Below, in pieces: positions 2,904-9,629 of a stretch of 39,783 nucleotides of DNA. The position numbers were made by a program, and so were the translations under genes. How positions within the stretch are numbered: position 1 is the stretch's first letter; every line of letters begins with the position of its first letter. Source of the stretch: a virus (Duplodnaviria > Heunggongvirae > Uroviricota > Caudoviricetes); IMG/VR virus record IMGVR_UViG_2706794673_000014. One strand, 5' to 3'. The notes under the pieces were generated by a model. That model did no database searches, had not been told where the DNA came from, and saw only the letters and a program-made list of their open reading frames with translations.

Positions 2904-4958
2904 TTACGCGTTATTCACTTCCACCACGATACTGTCAATCAGTACCGGGTAAGTCGCATTTTTAGTGATATCGGTCACGCGCAACTTGTCTGCCGTAAAC
3001 GTGCCGACCGGAGACTGCGACAGCATGAATGGTGTCCCGTCCTTACCATCAATGACCGGCGTCACCTCAATACTGTTGTTACCGGCAAAACGGAAGCCCA
3101 GCGTATGCCATTCGTTATTAAATGCGCCGAATGACCCCAGCTTCGTGTTCTGCGCCGTGTTTCCTTTGTGATACATCACGTTAAGGTCTGTGGCATCGCT
3201 CTGTACGTAGAACGATGCCAGCAGGTTATGACCGGCATTTCCTTCCAGAGTAACCCCTTGCGGCAGGGCAGAAACCGGCCAGTACAGCGCCAGTGCGTAC
3301 TGATTAGCCGTAAGCGCGCCATCGAGTTTAAAACGACAACTGACAAGACCACCTTTACCCAGCAGGTCCGCACCATTACCAGCATCATGCTCAAGGTACC
3401 AGGGGGCTCTTCCTGTTTCCTTGGTCAGTTTCATTGCCTTACCCCCGCTGGCTCCGGCATCATCCACGATTTGAGCCTTGCCACCTCCGGCAGCCCAACC
3501 CTGTGGTGTCAACCGTCCTTCAGACTCAGATGCCCGGTAAGCAAATAGCGTACTCATCGTCGTGGTGTCTGCGGGTGGCGTGGACGGTTTTGATGGTGTA
3601 TCAGGTGACGGCTTCTCATCCGGTGGTGTCACGGTCTGCCCACGCATCAGTTCAGCCGTGCGCCCTGCATGGAGCATAATAGCTGAGGCCAGACGGTCTG
3701 AAATGACGCCCCTGCGTGCCCATGAGCTGAAATGGCTGTCACGCTGTGTCGAAACAAAACTGCCCTGGGTTCGGGATGCTGCACCGTAATACCCGACAGC
3801 CACAATATCCGGGTCTTCCGCCGGAGCATTCGTTGGCGTGCTCTGTCCATTCTCATCCGTCAGGAACGGTACAAAGAAAATTTTCTGTGCTTCCTTGCCT
3901 TTGTAGCCACCGTATACTGCCTCATATTTATCGGTGCCAGCGTTTTTCCAGTAATACGTGGTATCACCGCAAATCCACGGCACCGTGGTGGCATTTCCAC
4001 TCACGCACTGCGCAGCAAGCGGAGCCAGGTCAGTTCTGAACTGCTGAACCATGGCCGTGAATAAACTATTATGCTGCTGGCTTCCTGAGGCAAGGTCTGC
4101 CTCTCCCTGCATCCAGACCACAGCCAGAAGTTTGTTTTTCGGGTTTTTCGCCAGCGCGACTTTGGTGCGGCTTACCAGGTCCTGATACAGAGGTTTACCG
4201 GCCCCCCAGCGTGAAGAATCAGCGGAAGCACCGCTGGCCTCACTGAATGAGCCGTCGGCTCCAGTGGTGAATGCTGACCCGCCACGACAACAGGGCACCA
4301 GAAGTATCCCGGCATTCTGTGGGATATAGGGAAGCAGTTTTTTGGCAATATGCAACCCCTGACCGACAGTCCCGTACTGGCCTTTTGCCAGATCAGCTTT
4401 CGGGTGGTTTATCCCGCTCATATCCTGAACATCATGCAGGCAGTGGTCTGCCGGAATGATGTCGTTGTATGTACACGACGTACCGTTGGGCGTTACCGTA
4501 CTGCGGCGTGCCAGTTGCTTAATGCGTGGGTCCGGGCGGTCAAACGAATCCGGTAACGGCAGCCCCTCGCCGTAGGCCATGCCATTTGACTGACCCGCGA
4601 GAATGACAACAAAGTAATATTCCGGCTCTGAACTGCTGCCATTCGTGCTACCGGAAGGCCCGGCGTTATCCGGTGCATTCCAGTCGGAGGGCGTGAGCGT
4701 TCCGGCCACGTCAGATGTGATTGGAATGATGCCAGTCACGCCTGAACTGGTGATTTCTGCACTGGGATTACCGGATACCGGCATTACCCATAATGGCTCT
4801 TTCGTGCTGAAGCGGATCACGCAGTCTGCGAAGGTGATCCCCCCTTTATTACCCGAAGGGCGGAAAGGGCTTTCAATAAATGCCACCGTGCCACCGGCAA
4901 CCTTGACTGAAAACTCTCCGGGCATGGCGGAGAGCATTTTCCACTTGGAGTCTGACAT
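2904..4958 (-). CDS. SGNH-hydrolase sialate O-acetylesterase-like protein (NanS/NanS-p-like), 684 aa, with Pro/Thr linker and C-terminal putative carbohydrate-binding domain
   Basis: Motif YYFVVILAGQSNGMAYGEGLPLPD and downstream blocks (NDIIPADHCLHDVQDMSG, LLVPCCRGGSAFT, HFSSWARRG) match recalled E. coli NanS (YjhS); linker TPPDEKPSPDTPSKPSTPP. Confidence 0.75.
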   Translation of the reverse strand: MSDSKWKMLSAMPGEFSVKVAGGTVAFIESPFRPSGNKGGITFADCVIRFSTKEPLWVMPVSGNPSAEITSSGVTGIIPITSDVAGTLTPSDWNAPDNAGPSGSTNGSSSEPEYYFVVILAGQSNGMAYGEGLPLPDSFDRPDPRIKQLARRSTVTPNGTSCTYNDIIPADHCLHDVQDMSGINHPKADLAKGQYGTVGQGLHIAKKLLPYIPQNAGILLVPCCRGGSAFTTGADGSFSEASGASADSSRWGAGKPLYQDLVSRTKVALAKNPKNKLLAVVWMQGEADLASGSQQHNSLFTAMVQQFRTDLAPLAAQCVSGNATTVPWICGDTTYYWKNAGTDKYEAVYGGYKGKEAQKIFFVPFLTDENGQSTPTNAPAEDPDIVAVGYYGAASRTQGSFVSTQRDSHFSSWARRGVISDRLASAIMLHAGRTAELMRGQTVTPPDEKPSPDTPSKPSTPPADTTTMSTLFAYRASESEGRLTPQGWAAGGGKAQIVDDAGASGGKAMKLTKETGRAPWYLEHDAGNGADLLGKGGLVSCRFKLDGALTANQYALALYWPVSALPQGVTLEGNAGHNLLASFYVQSDATDLNVMYHKGNTAQNTKLGSFGAFNNEWHTLGFRFAGNNSIEVTPVIDGKDGTPFMLSQSPVGTFTADKLRVTDITKNATYPVLIDSIVVEVNNA

Positions 4959-5030: not shown

Positions 5031-5063
5031 ATTCAAAAAAGCGTCACGGTACTTTTGGTGACG
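5031..5063 (-). terminator. Putative intrinsic terminator just after gin (6-bp GC-rich stem, then TTTTTT on the minus strand)
   Basis: Stem CGTCAC/GTGACG at 5042-5047 and 5058-5063 overlapping gin stop; plus-strand A-run 5035-5040. Confidence 0.45.
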
Positions 5064-5616
5064 GAGCTGGTGAGGCAGGAAAATAACGATAAAGGGTGGA
5101 AAGGCCAATATCAAATATCAGTGCGATTTGTTTACGGGACTCGCCATTAGCCAGCAAACGGGCGATTTGCTCCCGCTCTTTCTCTGTCAGTTTCTGAGGT
5201 CTGCCGCCATGACGCCCCTGAGCACGGGCAGCAGCAAGACCCGCGCGTGTACGTTCAATAATGAGTTCCCGCTCCATTTCCGCCAGCGCGCCCATTATAT
5301 GGAAAAAGAAACGTCCCATGGGAGTGGATGTATCAATATTGTCCGTAATGCTGCGGAAGTTAACGCCGCGTTGCCGGAGTTCTTCTGTTAAAAGGACAAG
5401 GTGCTGCATACTGCGTCCAAGGCGATCCAGTTTCCAGACCAGCAGGGTATCCCCTGGCCGGAGTCGCTTTAATGCGCGTTTAAGTCCGGGACGCTCCCTT
5501 GTCTTACCGCTTATTCTGTCTTCGAAAAACAGCTCACATCCTGCACATTCCAGCGCATTTCTTTGTAGCGCCGTATTCTGGTCATTTGTTGACACCCTGA
5601 TATACCCAATCAGCAT
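5044..5616 (-). CDS. gin: Gin/Hin/Pin-family serine DNA invertase
   Basis: MLIGYIRVSTNDQ...LLVWKLDRLGRSMQHL...GRFFFHIMGALAEMERELIIERT closely matches recalled Mu Gin; sits beside the invertible segment. Confidence 0.93.
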   Translation of the reverse strand: MLIGYIRVSTNDQNTALQRNALECAGCELFFEDRISGKTRERPGLKRALKRLRPGDTLLVWKLDRLGRSMQHLVLLTEELRQRGVNFRSITDNIDTSTPMGRFFFHIMGALAEMERELIIERTRAGLAAARAQGRHGGRPQKLTEKEREQIARLLANGESRKQIALIFDIGLSTLYRYFPASPAPSPKVP

Positions 5617-5681
5617 ACGATTTCCTTATTATAAAAAGCCGGAATTGTCGCATGAGGAATAAAACAGAGTTAATCCTGGCT

Positions 5682-5707
5682 TTCCTGAAAACCTCGGTTT
5701 ACGGGAA
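5682..5707. repeat. gix-like recombination site 1 (TTCCTGAAAACC-TC-GGTTTACGGGAA), core 5694-5695
   Basis: 26-bp imperfect palindrome with 12-bp half-sites and 2-bp core; resembles recalled Mu gix/hix sites. Confidence 0.75.
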
Positions 5708-6055
5708 ACGGTAAACAGGGCGGCGAATGCTCTGCCATCGGACGGCACCGCCGTTGCCGCGAATAGACTCGCCACCCCAAGAAATATTAATGGGGTTCCC
5801 TTTGACGGGACGCAGGACATAAACATCACTTCTGGTATAACACAGCAGGATGCGGATTCCCGATATATCCAGGATATCAGGCTGGGAGCAGAGAACAGGC
5901 AGGTAATGTACGGTGGGGCATATTACTCTGCGTACGGTAATGTTATGGCAGGCCTGCAGATTGACAGTAAAGTTGATGCTTCAAACGATTTTATAGCATT
6001 CAGACCCCTGCAAAAATTAGTCGGAGGTACATGGATTACGGTATCTCAGTTATAA
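5696..6055 (+). CDS. Alternative tail-fibre C-terminal cassette (Sv'-like), start-less; would fuse in frame to the constant part of S after inversion
   Basis: Open frame from crossover to stop 6053-6055 encoding [25 protein letters not shown]...FRPLQKLVGGTWITVSQL; first 23 aa identical to the corresponding part of S; no start codon. Confidence 0.65.
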   Translation, partial: GLRETVNRAANALPSDGTAVAANRLATPRNINGVPFDGTQDINITSGITQQDADSRYIQDIRLGAENRQVMYGGAYYSAYGNVMAGLQIDSKVDASNDFIAFRPLQKLVGGTWITVSQL

Positions 6056-6106
6056 ATAGTCAGTAAATAATATATTTTAAAACAGATTTATTTCCAGGAG
6101 GATTTT

Positions 6107-6628
6107 ATGGAACTAAAAAATATAACCCGTTATTATCCTGAAAATATGCCATATGGTAATAATGTTCAGTATTTCCAGAGTGAAGATGGTAAGGATTTCT
6201 ACGAATCCCTGCCATTATTCACCAAAAAATATAAACTTTGCATAACACCTGACAGCGGCGTTATCTGCTCAATATCACAGGACGCCTCGGCGCTGTATCC
6301 TGCGGGGTTTTCTGTGGTTGAGGTCGATGAACTCCCTGAAGGCACGGATATTTCAGGAAACTGGAAGTTTGATAATGGCATAATCTCCCGTATTCCGGTT
6401 AACTACGCAAGAAAACTGGAAGCAATGCGCCAGTCATATCTTAATCAGGCATATGAAAAAATTAATGACTGGAGAACGGAGCTACAACTGGGCACCATCA
6501 GCGATGAAGACAGAGCAGCACTTACCCAATGGATGGCATACATCAGTCAGGTGAAGAAAATGGAACTACCCGCCATTAAAACAGAAGCTGAATTTAACGC
6601 CATTAAATGGCCTGAGCAGCCACAGTAA
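6107..6628 (+). CDS. Tail fibre assembly protein (Tfa/U-like), 173 aa
   Basis: ATG with AGGAGG 6 nt upstream; Tfa-like C-terminus ...NAIKWPEQPQ; follows the Sv' cassette; AT-rich. Confidence 0.8.
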   Translation: MELKNITRYYPENMPYGNNVQYFQSEDGKDFYESLPLFTKKYKLCITPDSGVICSISQDASALYPAGFSVVEVDELPEGTDISGNWKFDNGIISRIPVNYARKLEAMRQSYLNQAYEKINDWRTELQLGTISDEDRAALTQWMAYISQVKKMELPAIKTEAEFNAIKWPEQPQ

Positions 6629-6659
6629 TAAAGAAGGCCGGAAGGCCTTCTGAATATCA

Positions 6660-7541
6660 TTATATACTTGCAGCCGTCACCCATGCTCCATTTAACAGAT
6701 ACTGCAACGGCCGGTAATACACGCCGCCGACGTTATCTGCCGTATTCTTACCGACATCCTGTACTTTAATTCCGGTAAGAACATTGCCGCCCCCCAGATT
6801 CAGATCCCAGCTTTCCCATGTTCCGGGCATATGTGCGGTCACCGACCCCAGTCTTATGGCGGTTACTGTTCCTGATGAGATAGTGATATCCTGCGTCCCG
6901 TCAAAGGGAACACCATTAATTGTGTGGGCATTTGCCAGCCTGTTCGCGGCAACGGCGGTGCCGTCCGATGGCAGGGCATTCGCCGCCCTGTTTACCGTTT
7001 CCCGTAAACCGACGTTATCGATAAAAGCCCCTTTATCCGGAATGTCTGCGCCGTTCTGCTCCCTGCGCAGGTAACGGTTATCACCTTCGCTTTTGCTGTA
7101 AACATCCAGATTATTACGGGCGGTTCCCTTATTCTCCAGGTCGGCGAGATTCTGATCCTTCGCCAGGGCATTAACGTCAGCGGGACCAAGACTGTTTTTT
7201 GTGGCAAGCGTCCCCAGACCAAGATAACCACGGGCCAGACGCTGGGCCTCCGCACCGGCATCAGCAATTTCTTTCAGGTTATTTTTCCGGGAAAAGGCAT
7301 TCGCAGCGATAATGGCTTTAATGGACAGCGTAAGCTGGTTTAACTGCGCCTTATCCGGCTGAATACTGGCTTCAGCCAGAATATTCAGCAGTTCGGCCTG
7401 GAGAATATTCAGCCAGTCCTGACCAATCCAGCTGATACCTTTTTGTCCGTCACCTTCGGTAAACCAGGTGGTGGTATTACTCTGCGCCGGTGCCAGCGCA
7501 GGCATATTCGCCACGCCGGAATTATTATCAACATGAAACAT
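6660..7541 (-). CDS. Tail fibre protein (Mu S-like); C-terminal ~75 aa encoded inside the invertible segment
   Basis: N-terminus [30 protein letters not shown] matches recalled Mu S; reading frame passes through gix site 2. Confidence 0.85.
6999..7024. repeat. gix-like recombination site 2 (TTCCCGTAAACC-GA-CGTTATCGATAA), core 7011-7012, inside the S gene
   Basis: Inverted relative to site 1; outer half-site TTATCGATAACG resembles recalled Mu gixL TTATCCAAAACC. Confidence 0.75.
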
Positions 7542-8101
7542 TAAATAGTCTCCTCTTCATGGCTGTTTGCATAAACGTAAATAAACGTCTGCCATGCAGG
7601 CTTATAACGGTTCAGAATACATTCCAGCGCACCGCCTTCATAAATACGCAGCGGCGTGAGAATATCATCCAGCACATTCATATTCCGGTAGCCGGTTTCA
7701 CTGTTAATCGTGACAATACTGACCCACTGCGAATCCGGTGAGGGCTGAATGTCAATCTGATAACCAAACTCCGCCGCAAACCGGATATAAAATTCACGGT
7801 TCAGCGAGGGCTTCATCCGGTATTTATTTCCGGCATAACGCTGTCGCTCCGTGAGGGTGGCTCCGGCCATATCACACTCGGGAAGCCCGAGATAACGCTC
7901 CCAGTCTTCCAGCAGCAGGCGCGACGTGTCAGGGAAACGCTCGGCAAGCAGCTGTTTACCCGTCCAGGATACACGCGCTGTCGAATGACTGAGGCCCAGA
8001 CATAATGATGCCAGTACGGATGACGGACGCTTGTCCCATGCCAGCCCGTCAGGCAGTAACTGCAACAGGGCGCGCTGATGCGGGGTCAGGGTTACAGCCA
8101 T
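7541..8101 (-). CDS. Tail/baseplate protein (Mu gp48-like)
   Basis: 186-aa ORF between baseplate J-like gene and tail fibre; gene order. Confidence 0.65.
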
Positions 8102-9192
8102 GTGATTTCTCCTACCGTCAGCAGCTCACTGTCTCCCGCCTGAACTGACGTCAGCGGACTGCGCACTTCAAAATCCTCCAGATTTTTCACCCCTGCCACC
8201 GCCCGCCAGAAAGACGACGGCAGAACCAGACCGCCGGGCCGGGATTCGTTATACAACAGGTCGGTCAGCGCCTGTTTTACGGCCGCCTGATTCTCCGGTG
8301 TTTTCGGGATGATCCTGATGCTGAAGGGCACCGGCTTATTGGTCAGTTTAAACACGGTCACCGTCGGCCCCAGAGGCTGTCCGACAGGCTGGCCGGTCGC
8401 CGGATCATCATGACTGCGGATATAATCCGCCACCCGCTGAACATCACCGTCACCGGGGAAAATATCCGGGTTATTATCCTGAACAAACGTTACCCCCACG
8501 CTGCCCGCCTGCGGCCATTCCGGGCGGCACCATGCCCGCGTCACGCCCGGCACTTCACGCGCCCAGCGTTCAAAATCATACTGCGTGCCGNNNNNNNNNN
8601 NNNNNNNNNNNNNNNNNNNNNNNNNNNNNNNNNNNNNNNNNNNNNNNNNNNNNNNNNNNNNNNNNNNNNNNNNNNNNNNNNNNNNNNNNNNNNNNNNNNN
8701 NNNNNNNNNNNNNNNNNNNNNNNNNNNNNNNNNNNNNNNNNNNNNNNNNNNNNNNNNNNNNNNNNNNNNNNNNNNNNNNNNNNNNNNNNNNNNNNNNNNN
8801 NNNNNNNNNNNNNNNNNNNNNNNNNNNNNNNNNNNNNNNNNNNNNNNNTAAACCACGCCATCACTTCGCTGGAGAAGCACACCTTCCTTGATCCCCGCAT
8901 CCGTGGTCAGCATCAGCTGAACCGGCCCGTCCCCCCGAGAGGCAGGCTTACGCATGACGCCCCAGAATGCACAGTGTTTCAGCAGTTCGGCTTCATCGGC
9001 TTCGGTCGGGATGATCTGACGCGCAATCCAGGCCAGATGCTCATGCTCCTGAGCAGATAACCCTGCCTGAGCGTAAGCAATGGCATTCAGGGTGGTTTCA
9101 TTCACACCCGGCTGCGAGCCGGGCAGGCGCTGGCTGATATCCTGCTGTGTCTGCGTGATTAACTGTGCCAGCGGTAAAGGCTGATAAGGCAT
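8092..9192 (-). CDS. Baseplate J-like protein (Mu gp47-like); interrupted by N-run 8591-8848
   Basis: Size and position in baseplate cluster; both flanks of the gap read as one frame. Confidence 0.7.
   Translation of the reverse strand: MPYQPLPLAQLITQTQQDISQRLPGSQPGVNETTLNAIAYAQAGLSAQEHEHLAWIARQIIPTEADEAELLKHCAFWGVMRKPASRGDGPVQLMLTTDAGIKEGVLLQRSDGVVXXXXXXXXXXXXXXXXXXXXXXXXXXXXXXXXXXXXXXXXXXXXXXXXXXXXXXXXXXXXXXXXXXXXXXXXXXXXXXXXXXXXXXXGTQYDFERWAREVPGVTRAWCRPEWPQAGSVGVTFVQDNNPDIFPGDGDVQRVADYIRSHDDPATGQPVGQPLGPTVTVFKLTNKPVPFSIRIIPKTPENQAAVKQALTDLLYNESRPGGLVLPSSFWRAVAGVKNLEDFEVRSPLTSVQAGDSELLTVGEITWL
8591..8848. other. Run of N (unsequenced or masked)
   Basis: Read directly. Confidence 1.
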
Positions 9193-9629
9193 TACTCCCC
9201 CTTAAGATCAGCATAAAAAATCATGGGCCTCACTGAACCATCAGGCAGGGTTATGCGCACCGAAAGCGCCAGCCGCGCGTGTCCCACACGTTCTGCATGA
9301 CAGACCACGGATGACGCCACGCCATCCTGACTGAGCCAGCCCAGCGCCTCATCCGCGTAAGCACGGGCACGGCTTATCACCGAGGCCAGCGTTTTTTCCC
9401 GGCTGAGAAGCCACAGACGGGAGCCAATGGGGCGCGGGCGAAAACTGTCTCCCCACCATCCCCGGCGGTCGCGCGTACCGTCAGGGATTTCATCCGATGC
9501 CAGCGCCCGGCGGTCAGTAAACAGCGAAATCAGAACGGCCGTCAGCAGACTGTCATCCGTCAGCAAGTCGGCACCGTTCAGTTGCAGCGAACCGCACCCC
9601 TGATCCCATACAATTGCAATATCAGCCAT
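9192..9629 (-). CDS. Baseplate protein (Mu gp46/W-like)
   Basis: ATG at 9627-9629 overlapping stop of upstream gene (ATGGCTGA); gene order. Confidence 0.65.
   Translation of the reverse strand: MADIAIVWDQGCGSLQLNGADLLTDDSLLTAVLISLFTDRRALASDEIPDGTRDRRGWWGDSFRPRPIGSRLWLLSREKTLASVISRARAYADEALGWLSQDGVASSVVCHAERVGHARLALSVRITLPDGSVRPMIFYADLKGE

Follow-up and report, generated by a model that had tools for sequence, protein, structure and literature searches.

An invertible tail-fibre segment with a single tail-fibre assembly gene in Mu-like prophages of Escherichia coli

Organization of the fibre locus

The 39,783-nt stretch of DNA analysed here (the window; IMG/VR record IMGVR_UViG_2706794673_000014, Caudoviricetes) includes the right-hand end of a Mu-like prophage, which reads along the minus strand and whose tail-fibre gene S has its 3′ part within an invertible segment. 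Invertible tail-fibre segments are a textbook form of programmed host-range variation, and in the accepted design each fibre tip has a chaperone of its own. The segment in the window is a genuine, active member of the Gin/gix family, a tail-fibre host-range switch like the G segment of phage Mu, but it does not have a separate chaperone gene for each tip.

Two 26-bp gix-like sites in inverted orientation, at 5682-5707 on the plus strand (TTCCTGAAAACCTCGGTTTACGGGAA) and at 6999-7024 on the minus strand (reverse complement TTATCGATAACGTCGGTTTACGGGAA), bound a segment of 1.3 kb (~1,317 bp). These are exactly the outer coordinates, 5682 and 7024, given in an earlier note that a model had made from the letters of the window without database searches (the sequence-only reading). 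Both 26-mers are close to Mu gix (TTATCCAAAACCTCGGTTTACAGGAA) and have TC as their central dinucleotide, at 5694-5695 in the left site and at 7011-7012 in the right one, where it falls within codon Val177 of S. Both sites share a 23-mer (TCGGTTTACGGGAAACGGTAAAC), of which the window has exactly two copies, one per strand, where none was expected (100 shuffles). The window holds exactly two crossover sites, not the larger set of a multiple-inversion system such as p15B Min or the P2-like "shufflon" of enteropathogenic E. coli (EPEC). The 26-mers lie at the outer ends of longer inverted repeats, one of 86 nt (5687-5772 / 6934-7019; 93%), carried on by another of 50 nt (5786-5835 / 6871-6920; 84%), which flank the block containing the tail-fibre assembly gene, tfa.

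According to the open reading frames and their translation, S (6660-7541, minus strand) encodes a protein of 293 aa. Its constant part (Sc; residues 1-177; 7013-7541, minus strand) is homologous to Mu S, and residues 1-191 match Mu S in the PDB entries 5yvq_A and 8ju3_A at ~1e-46. The crossover falls within codon Val177, which corresponds to its position in the Mu protein. The currently expressed tip cassette (Sv; 6660-7010, minus strand) encodes residues 178-293. The silent alternative (Sv′; 5696-6055, plus strand) comprises 119 codons and a stop, without a start codon of its own, in a frame that stays open between 5663 and its stop at 6055. A constant 5′ part outside the segment and two opposed, start-less 3′ cassettes inside is the arrangement of a host-range segment. 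The variable parts of 116 and 119 aa compare with ~320 in Mu. The cassettes had been said to share their first 23 codons; in fact they are identical over the first 26 residues from Gly178. Their similar C-terminal ends had been quoted correctly, and they are instances of a motif found throughout the family, Y-x-R-P-x-Q…N-G-x-W…S.

When a profile was built from this clade's tips (see below), it matched the C-terminal ~70 residues of Mu S (2.9e-14) and of Mu S′ (9e-7), and also the "short tail fiber" 9cuy_c (2.9e-15). In both tips, the terminal domain (~70 aa) is of the family found in Mu S and S′. The fibre therefore amounts to Mu Sc followed by a short repeat and the terminal domain; the middle of Mu Sv (~230 aa) is missing.

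Between the two cassettes lies a single tfa gene (6107-6628, plus strand; 173 aa). Its product is a member of the Caudo_TAP family (lambda Tfa / Mu U / P2 G), scoring 4.8e-19 and 69.2 bits against PF02413 (cut-off 22.1), it matches Mu U in PDB 5yvq_B (4.2e-16), and it shares 28-32% identity with Mu U and U′. By homology, it would act as a fibre chaperone. In the classical layout, each cassette has its own tfa (Sv-U / U′-Sv′); here, one Caudo_TAP gene was found in the segment. Open reading frames, sites and repeats all bear out the description of a ~1.3-kb segment with two alternative S 3′ ends and one tfa, and also that tfa (plus strand) converges with S (minus strand) in the present orientation.

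Only 66 bp separate the left gix-like site from the end of a gene for a 190-aa serine DNA invertase of the Gin/Pin/Hin/Cin type (5044-5616, minus strand; Pfam Resolvase 1.6e-51, HTH_7 4.9e-15), which is 74% identical to Mu Gin over 184 aa. The locus has what characterizes Din-family systems: a small (~190 aa) serine recombinase with a catalytic domain and a C-terminal helix-turn-helix, adjoining the segment; two inverted, imperfectly palindromic 26-bp sites with matching central dinucleotides; and, as shown next, a segment present in both orientations and joined exactly at the sites.

Natural inversion of the segment

The orientation of the window (tfa convergent with S; tip of family D-a) is referred to as A and the flipped one (tip of family P-a) as B. 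A 2.6-kb region was compared by megablast with 5,426 complete E. coli genomes, 237 of which contain related sequence, including O157 and other Shiga toxin-producing strains. Orientation A was present in 18 of the complete genomes, at a minimum of 98.7% identity and over the full length (95% coverage in one). Two genomes matched the A query in the flanks alone. In the annotation of one of these, NCCP 13983, a gene for a 296-aa fibre has tfa immediately behind it in the same direction, and flipping the window in silico at the crossover likewise produced an intact 296-aa S′, as expected from the earlier proposal that the flipped orientation brings fibre gene and tfa into line. When the flipped form was used as the query, it was found at five places in complete E. 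coli genomes. Strains DLI.5a, TOE17 and AST46 each carry one prophage copy in orientation A and another in B.

The most direct evidence for inversion comes from a clonal pair. FORC_029 (A) and NCCP 13983 (B), both Korean E. coli isolates, share the integration site of the prophage, which lies in elfC, a fimbrial usher gene. Comparison over 42,601 bp, of which 15 kb are chromosomal, shows differences only within the segment, and reverse-complementing it clears all 819 mismatches. The breakpoints permitted by this pair are 5694-5713 and 6993-7012 (window coordinates), an interval that begins exactly at the central dinucleotide. Two contigs of one IMG/VR genome (L052 and L054) likewise show no mismatch once one is flipped. 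For mapping the crossover, further A/B pairs either had repeats that were perfect over 128 nt, or were too divergent or contained indels. Natural variation shows that the segment inverts, as the sequence-only reading had proposed, and a single fixed orientation, which would have spoken against that proposal, was not what the genomes contained: A and B are both present among them. Nor is the plus-strand cassette a decayed pseudogene, since it is intact in every relative and forms the expressed end in flipped genomes.

The flips between genomes might instead have come about by RecA-dependent homologous recombination across the ~140-bp inverted repeats, which are long enough for it and whose arms, often identical within a locus over the first ~45 codons, suggest gene conversion. 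Against this speaks the position of the crossover, which in the clonal pair lies within the outermost 20 bp of homology, beginning at the centre of the gix site, and in the pair formed by the window and L001 within the outermost 37 bp. In addition, an intact Gin homologue and two gix cores are kept in those invertible relatives whose contigs reach far enough. Because of these crossover positions and the conserved invertase and sites, exchange by the invertase is by far the likelier explanation, and homologous recombination as the source of the flips is very improbable.

Very probably, the segment serves this Mu-like E. coli prophage as a host-range switch that works by Gin-type site-specific inversion, like the Mu G segment. 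In the mechanism proposed here, the invertase would pair the inverted gix-like sites and exchange strands at the central TC. This would flip ~1,317 bp, leave the constant 177 codons of S outside, and join Sc to either the D-a tip (A; fibre of 293 aa) or the P-a tip (B; fibre of 296 aa), the receptor specificities of which presumably differ. The exchange may further depend on Fis and a recombinational enhancer. Going by the position that the enhancer presumably has in gin and hin, a sis-like candidate was placed within the 5′ end of the invertase gene (5517-5597, minus strand). Over the first 60 nt of the gene, identity to gin is 82%, compared with 68% for the whole gene, and GGTGTCAACAAATGACCAGAATAC is nearly identical (one or two mismatches) in gin and pinE. 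This is suggestive of an enhancer in the 5′ part of the gene; that conservation is only modestly raised counts against it.

Several further observations concern the repeats and their treatment in databases. The first ~45 codons of the two cassettes tend to be identical within a locus, yet differ between loci (arms 5696-5835 / 6871-7010 in the window; also L052, L053 and L054), which points to concerted evolution, by gene conversion, of the long inverted repeats on the inner side of the gix sites. In NCCP 13905 (NZ_CM167690.1; orientation A), the region is 98.7% identical to the window, and 99.9% identical to the flanks of the flipped copy in NCCP 13983. This hints that polymorphisms of the repeat arms may have been exchanged in this strain, by an inner crossover or by conversion. 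Three draft IMG/VR contigs (L043, L044 and L045) stop 14-21 nt past the start of the gix core in S, a position consistent with assemblies breaking at the inverted repeat or where orientations are mixed. RefSeq/PGAP calls the silent cassette a pseudogene ("phage tail protein, incomplete; missing N-terminus"; 2182-2556 of L003, equivalent to 5681-6055 of the window) and, in flipped genomes, places spurious small open reading frames over the other cassette. These calls are a systematic mis-annotation of invertible fibre ends. In practical terms, the silent cassette is called a pseudogene by annotation pipelines, and draft assemblies are broken at the crossover sites.

Distribution of the one-tfa layout

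Viral and genome contigs were scanned with an alignment of the constant fibre part, and the 85 loci obtained were annotated using phmmer. Loci in which Sc was ~47% identical to that of the window proved to be Mu proper and its relatives, with fibres of ~500 aa, two opposed tfa genes and gin. In contrast, ~30 loci in which a tfa was found (Sc 65-100% identical) encode fibres of ~300 aa and have one tfa. They also carry the invertase, provided that the contig reaches far enough and gin has not been deleted, and the number of inverted gix cores is exactly two in every complete one. The same layout is seen in the annotation of E. coli relatives that are 80-90% identical, among them O157, O111 and O91 strains. 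The productive scan was that of the viral contigs; among species-representative genomes, a search with Tfa gave 93 pattern matches, none of which was confirmed, and repeating it with the constant-fibre alignment gave only five loci. None of the isolated-phage genomes among 50,697 phage records carried the module, and the only close matches there were Mu-like inserts in two records of Stx-converting phages. The one-tfa variant is widespread, and it is undescribed in the literature searched. A large clade of enterobacterial Mu-like prophages departs in this way from the design of one chaperone per tip.

Within this clade, three tip families are proximal, with the same orientation as tfa (P-a; P-b, which is very like the Mu S tip; and P-c), and two are distal (D-a and D-b). 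Five of the 3 × 2 = six possible proximal/distal combinations were seen, several of them in both orientations, and every cassette was an intact frame. Since tfa is convergent with S in ~22 IMG/VR loci and co-oriented with it in ~6, and the complete genomes divide similarly (~18 vs 5), orientation A is the commoner state. It is in this commoner orientation that the clade's one chaperone gene is antisense to the fibre gene.

A related locus was found in Citrobacter braakii ATCC 51113 (L013, 6819-9223), where a 472-aa fibre gene and a single 229-aa tfa are accompanied by three gix-like repeats (near 6819-6852, 8780-8856 and 9190-9223), and a D-b-like tip lies upstream of tfa on the same strand. 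This arrangement suggests a multi-inversion version of the one-chaperone layout.

One chaperone for two tips

In orientation B, tfa lies directly downstream of S′ and would be co-transcribed with it; in orientation A, the two genes converge. The sequence-only reading had raised the possibility that one chaperone serves both tips, and what was found since strengthens it without proving it. All five tip families carry the terminal domain of the Mu S and S′ tips, as judged by profile match, and in Mu this domain is reportedly bound by the N-terminal domain of the chaperone. The N-terminal 95 residues of Tfa are 69-100% identical (mean 85%), irrespective of which tips accompany them, and the C-terminal half is more variable. 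D-like tips also occur in a P1 variant (MH422554; its tip is 52% identical to that of D-a) and in an Avunavirus, each followed by a co-oriented Caudo_TAP gene, and D-type tips therefore normally come with a chaperone.

Further evidence is provided by a lineage that has lost the ability to invert. In eight loci (L002, which is E. coli M3, L026-L028, L030, L033, L035 and L042), a single deletion with the same junction extends from about position 5110 of the window, 22 codons from the stop of the invertase gene, as far as the last ~17 codons of the silent cassette, so that gin, the left gix-like site and most of Sv′ are gone. These loci are always in orientation A and tfa is intact, with pairwise dN/dS between 0.10 and 0.23. 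As a test of whether tfa functions while locked, these low ratios turned out not to be clean, owing to the mosaic nature of the divergence. As orientation A is the commoner one, and the only one in an invertase-less lineage that keeps tfa intact, the single Tfa would most probably serve both tips. A Tfa serving both tips would also have to be transcribed independently of the S transcript, and a shared chaperone with its own transcription is, on the whole, the favoured explanation.

Several points weigh against this explanation. In orientation A, tfa cannot lie on the S transcript. The AT-rich spacer upstream of it (6056-6106, plus strand), which the sequence-only reading had put forward as a candidate promoter, contains a ribosome-binding site (AGGAGG) and at most a weak promoter: a standard scan for sigma-70-like sequences on the plus strand found none there, and relaxed settings gave matches of 8/12 only. 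The regions upstream of tfa differ between alleles, and scanning that of the window together with three other types of upstream region yielded only 8-9/12 and no conserved element. The Mu Pmom box (TTAT-N6-ATAA) matched three times, compared with 2.2 expected, and none of these matches was upstream of tfa. The divergence within the locked lineage is mosaic, and low dN/dS could have been imported by recombination, so that it is no proof of selection while locked. Finally, orientation counts taken from assemblies are non-independent samples. A late promoter for tfa dependent on Mu C was considered and dropped: no C-type box was recognized, and the region upstream of com is unlike that of Mu.

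The lack of a good promoter, together with the antisense position of tfa relative to the late S transcript in orientation A, would fit a single Tfa that serves the co-oriented, proximal tip only. The distal tip would then fold without a dedicated chaperone or borrow Tfa from another prophage; other tfa genes are common in E. coli genomes, and the distal families D-a and D-b are related to each other and distinct from the proximal ones. However, all five tip families share the domain reported as chaperone-bound in Mu, the D-like tips of the P1 variant and of the Avunavirus have an adjacent Caudo_TAP gene of their own, and tfa has stayed intact in the A-locked lineage without invertase, despite its considerable divergence. 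A chaperone restricted to the proximal tip is hence rather unlikely. More unlikely still is that orientation A represents a fibre-deficient state of low infectivity and inversion an on/off switch for fibre assembly. The canonical fibre-chaperone operon does exist in orientation B only, but A is the orientation found more often, both in complete genomes and in IMG/VR loci, all relatives have intact D tips with conserved protein sequence, and the locked lineage retains the A arrangement with intact S and tfa.

A shared chaperone leaves room for regulation. Conceivably, albeit speculatively, Tfa is a generalist with an orientation-independent promoter, and inversion toggles its gene between being coupled to the fibre operon and being convergent with S, which could tie chaperone dosage, and with it the yield of functional fibres, to orientation. 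If so, orientation-dependent chaperone dosage would be a second regulatory layer, not described for Mu, P1 or e14. Sharing would also make this a natural generalist Tfa with five interchangeable tip domains of ~75 aa, useful for engineering the host range of phages and tailocins.

A GC-rich hairpin between the convergent stop codons of tfa and S (6632-6651) was picked up by a terminator scan and by folding (−14.8 and −14.5 kcal/mol; z ≈ −3.3 on both strands). The stem is followed by a U-rich tail (UUUAUU) on the minus strand only, and the hairpin is accordingly predicted to be terminator-like for the S transcript only.

Comparison with known invertible segments

The closest counterpart is the G segment of Mu. 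In addition to the similarity of the invertases and the nearly identical 26-bp gix sites, the invertase gene adjoins the segment in both, Sc is homologous to residues 1-184 of Mu S, the tips end in the same ~70-aa domain, the crossover occupies the same position in S (…N-x-G-L-(Q/R)-E-T-V-N…), and the prophage end carries com/mom. In contrast, the Mu segment is 3 kb long, contains Sv-U and U′-Sv′ with two chaperone genes, and encodes the much longer variable parts mentioned above; an additional SASA-esterase/DUF6645 gene and others between the invertase gene and com/mom also set the present prophage apart from Mu.

Small segments with a Pin-type invertase or sites, short fibre genes behind a YmfQ/gp48-like gene, and both orientations coexisting in culture are known from e14 of E. 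coli K-12 (P segment, PinE; 1.84 kb) and from the Mu-like prophage of EPEC E2348/69 (1.92 kb), the inversion of which was validated by sequencing and PCR (Goldberg et al. 2014, PMC4272514). Both differ from the segment described here by two back-to-back tfa genes (tfaP/tfaE in e14) and the crossover repeat AAACCTTGGTTTGGGAGAA. The "Mu prophage" inversion of EPEC E2348/69 was for this reason, two tfa genes and e14-type repeats, ruled out as an earlier case of the one-tfa layout. Phage P1 (C segment, Cin) has a recombinase of the same family and follows the same principle, but differs in its long inverted repeats, its much longer fibre genes and its two tfa (U/U′) genes.

An invertible fibre region whose single Caudo_TAP gene converges, in the reference orientation, with the expressed fibre gene is present in the P2-like shufflon of EPEC E2348/69 (NC_011601, 1891695-1893703). 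It has been validated experimentally, with ~90% of cells in the reference orientation (Goldberg et al. 2014, PMC4272514), and is one experimentally validated precedent for a single Caudo_TAP gene. The number of chaperones is not discussed in the text of that paper that was searched. This region differs in that its fibre is of the P2 type (H), that three repeats give rise to four arrangements and three tips, that one cassette has a tail-collar domain, and that it is not part of a Mu-like phage. A literature search for a described single-tfa invertible segment found none.

The shortness of the segment is due to its short tips (116-119 aa) and to the missing second tfa. The sequence-only reading had called it minimal, which holds relative to Mu G and e14 P, both of which are longer, but not in an absolute sense. 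Carotovoricin Er is said to have a still shorter segment of ~790 bp with 26-bp repeats, which reportedly exchanges C-terminal fibre ends only and adjoins a Din-family invertase gene; it is reported to contain no chaperone gene, and the particle to be a bacteriocin rather than a phage.

Prophage context

Upstream of S, the minus strand carries the baseplate genes, V-like, gp46-like, gp47/J-like (8092-9192) and gp48/YmfQ-like (7541-8101; Pfam Phage_Mu_Gp48), in this order. A run of N at 8585-8851 of the window breaks the gp47/J-like gene. In the prophage of FORC_029, RefSeq annotates a "tRNA-OTHER" between virion and head morphogenesis genes (L004, 36646-36725); an ARAGORN scan of the whole window detected no tRNA.

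Upstream of the com/mom homologues, at ~1590-1650 on the minus strand, the window contains a cluster of GATC sequences (…AAATCGATCGTTTTTGTCGATCGATTGAG…). The cluster is reminiscent of the Dam-dependent control of Mu mom; the region is otherwise unlike the C-binding region of Mu Pmom.

Directly downstream of the invertase gene, between it and com/mom, lies a gene for a 684-aa protein (2904-4958, minus strand) with a SASA carbohydrate-esterase domain (1.5e-13) and a C-terminal DUF6645 domain (7e-68). It is absent from classical Mu and occupies the same position in all E. coli relatives looked at. The protein could be an O-acetyl esterase acting on surface polysaccharide, either borne by the virion or involved in lysogenic conversion.

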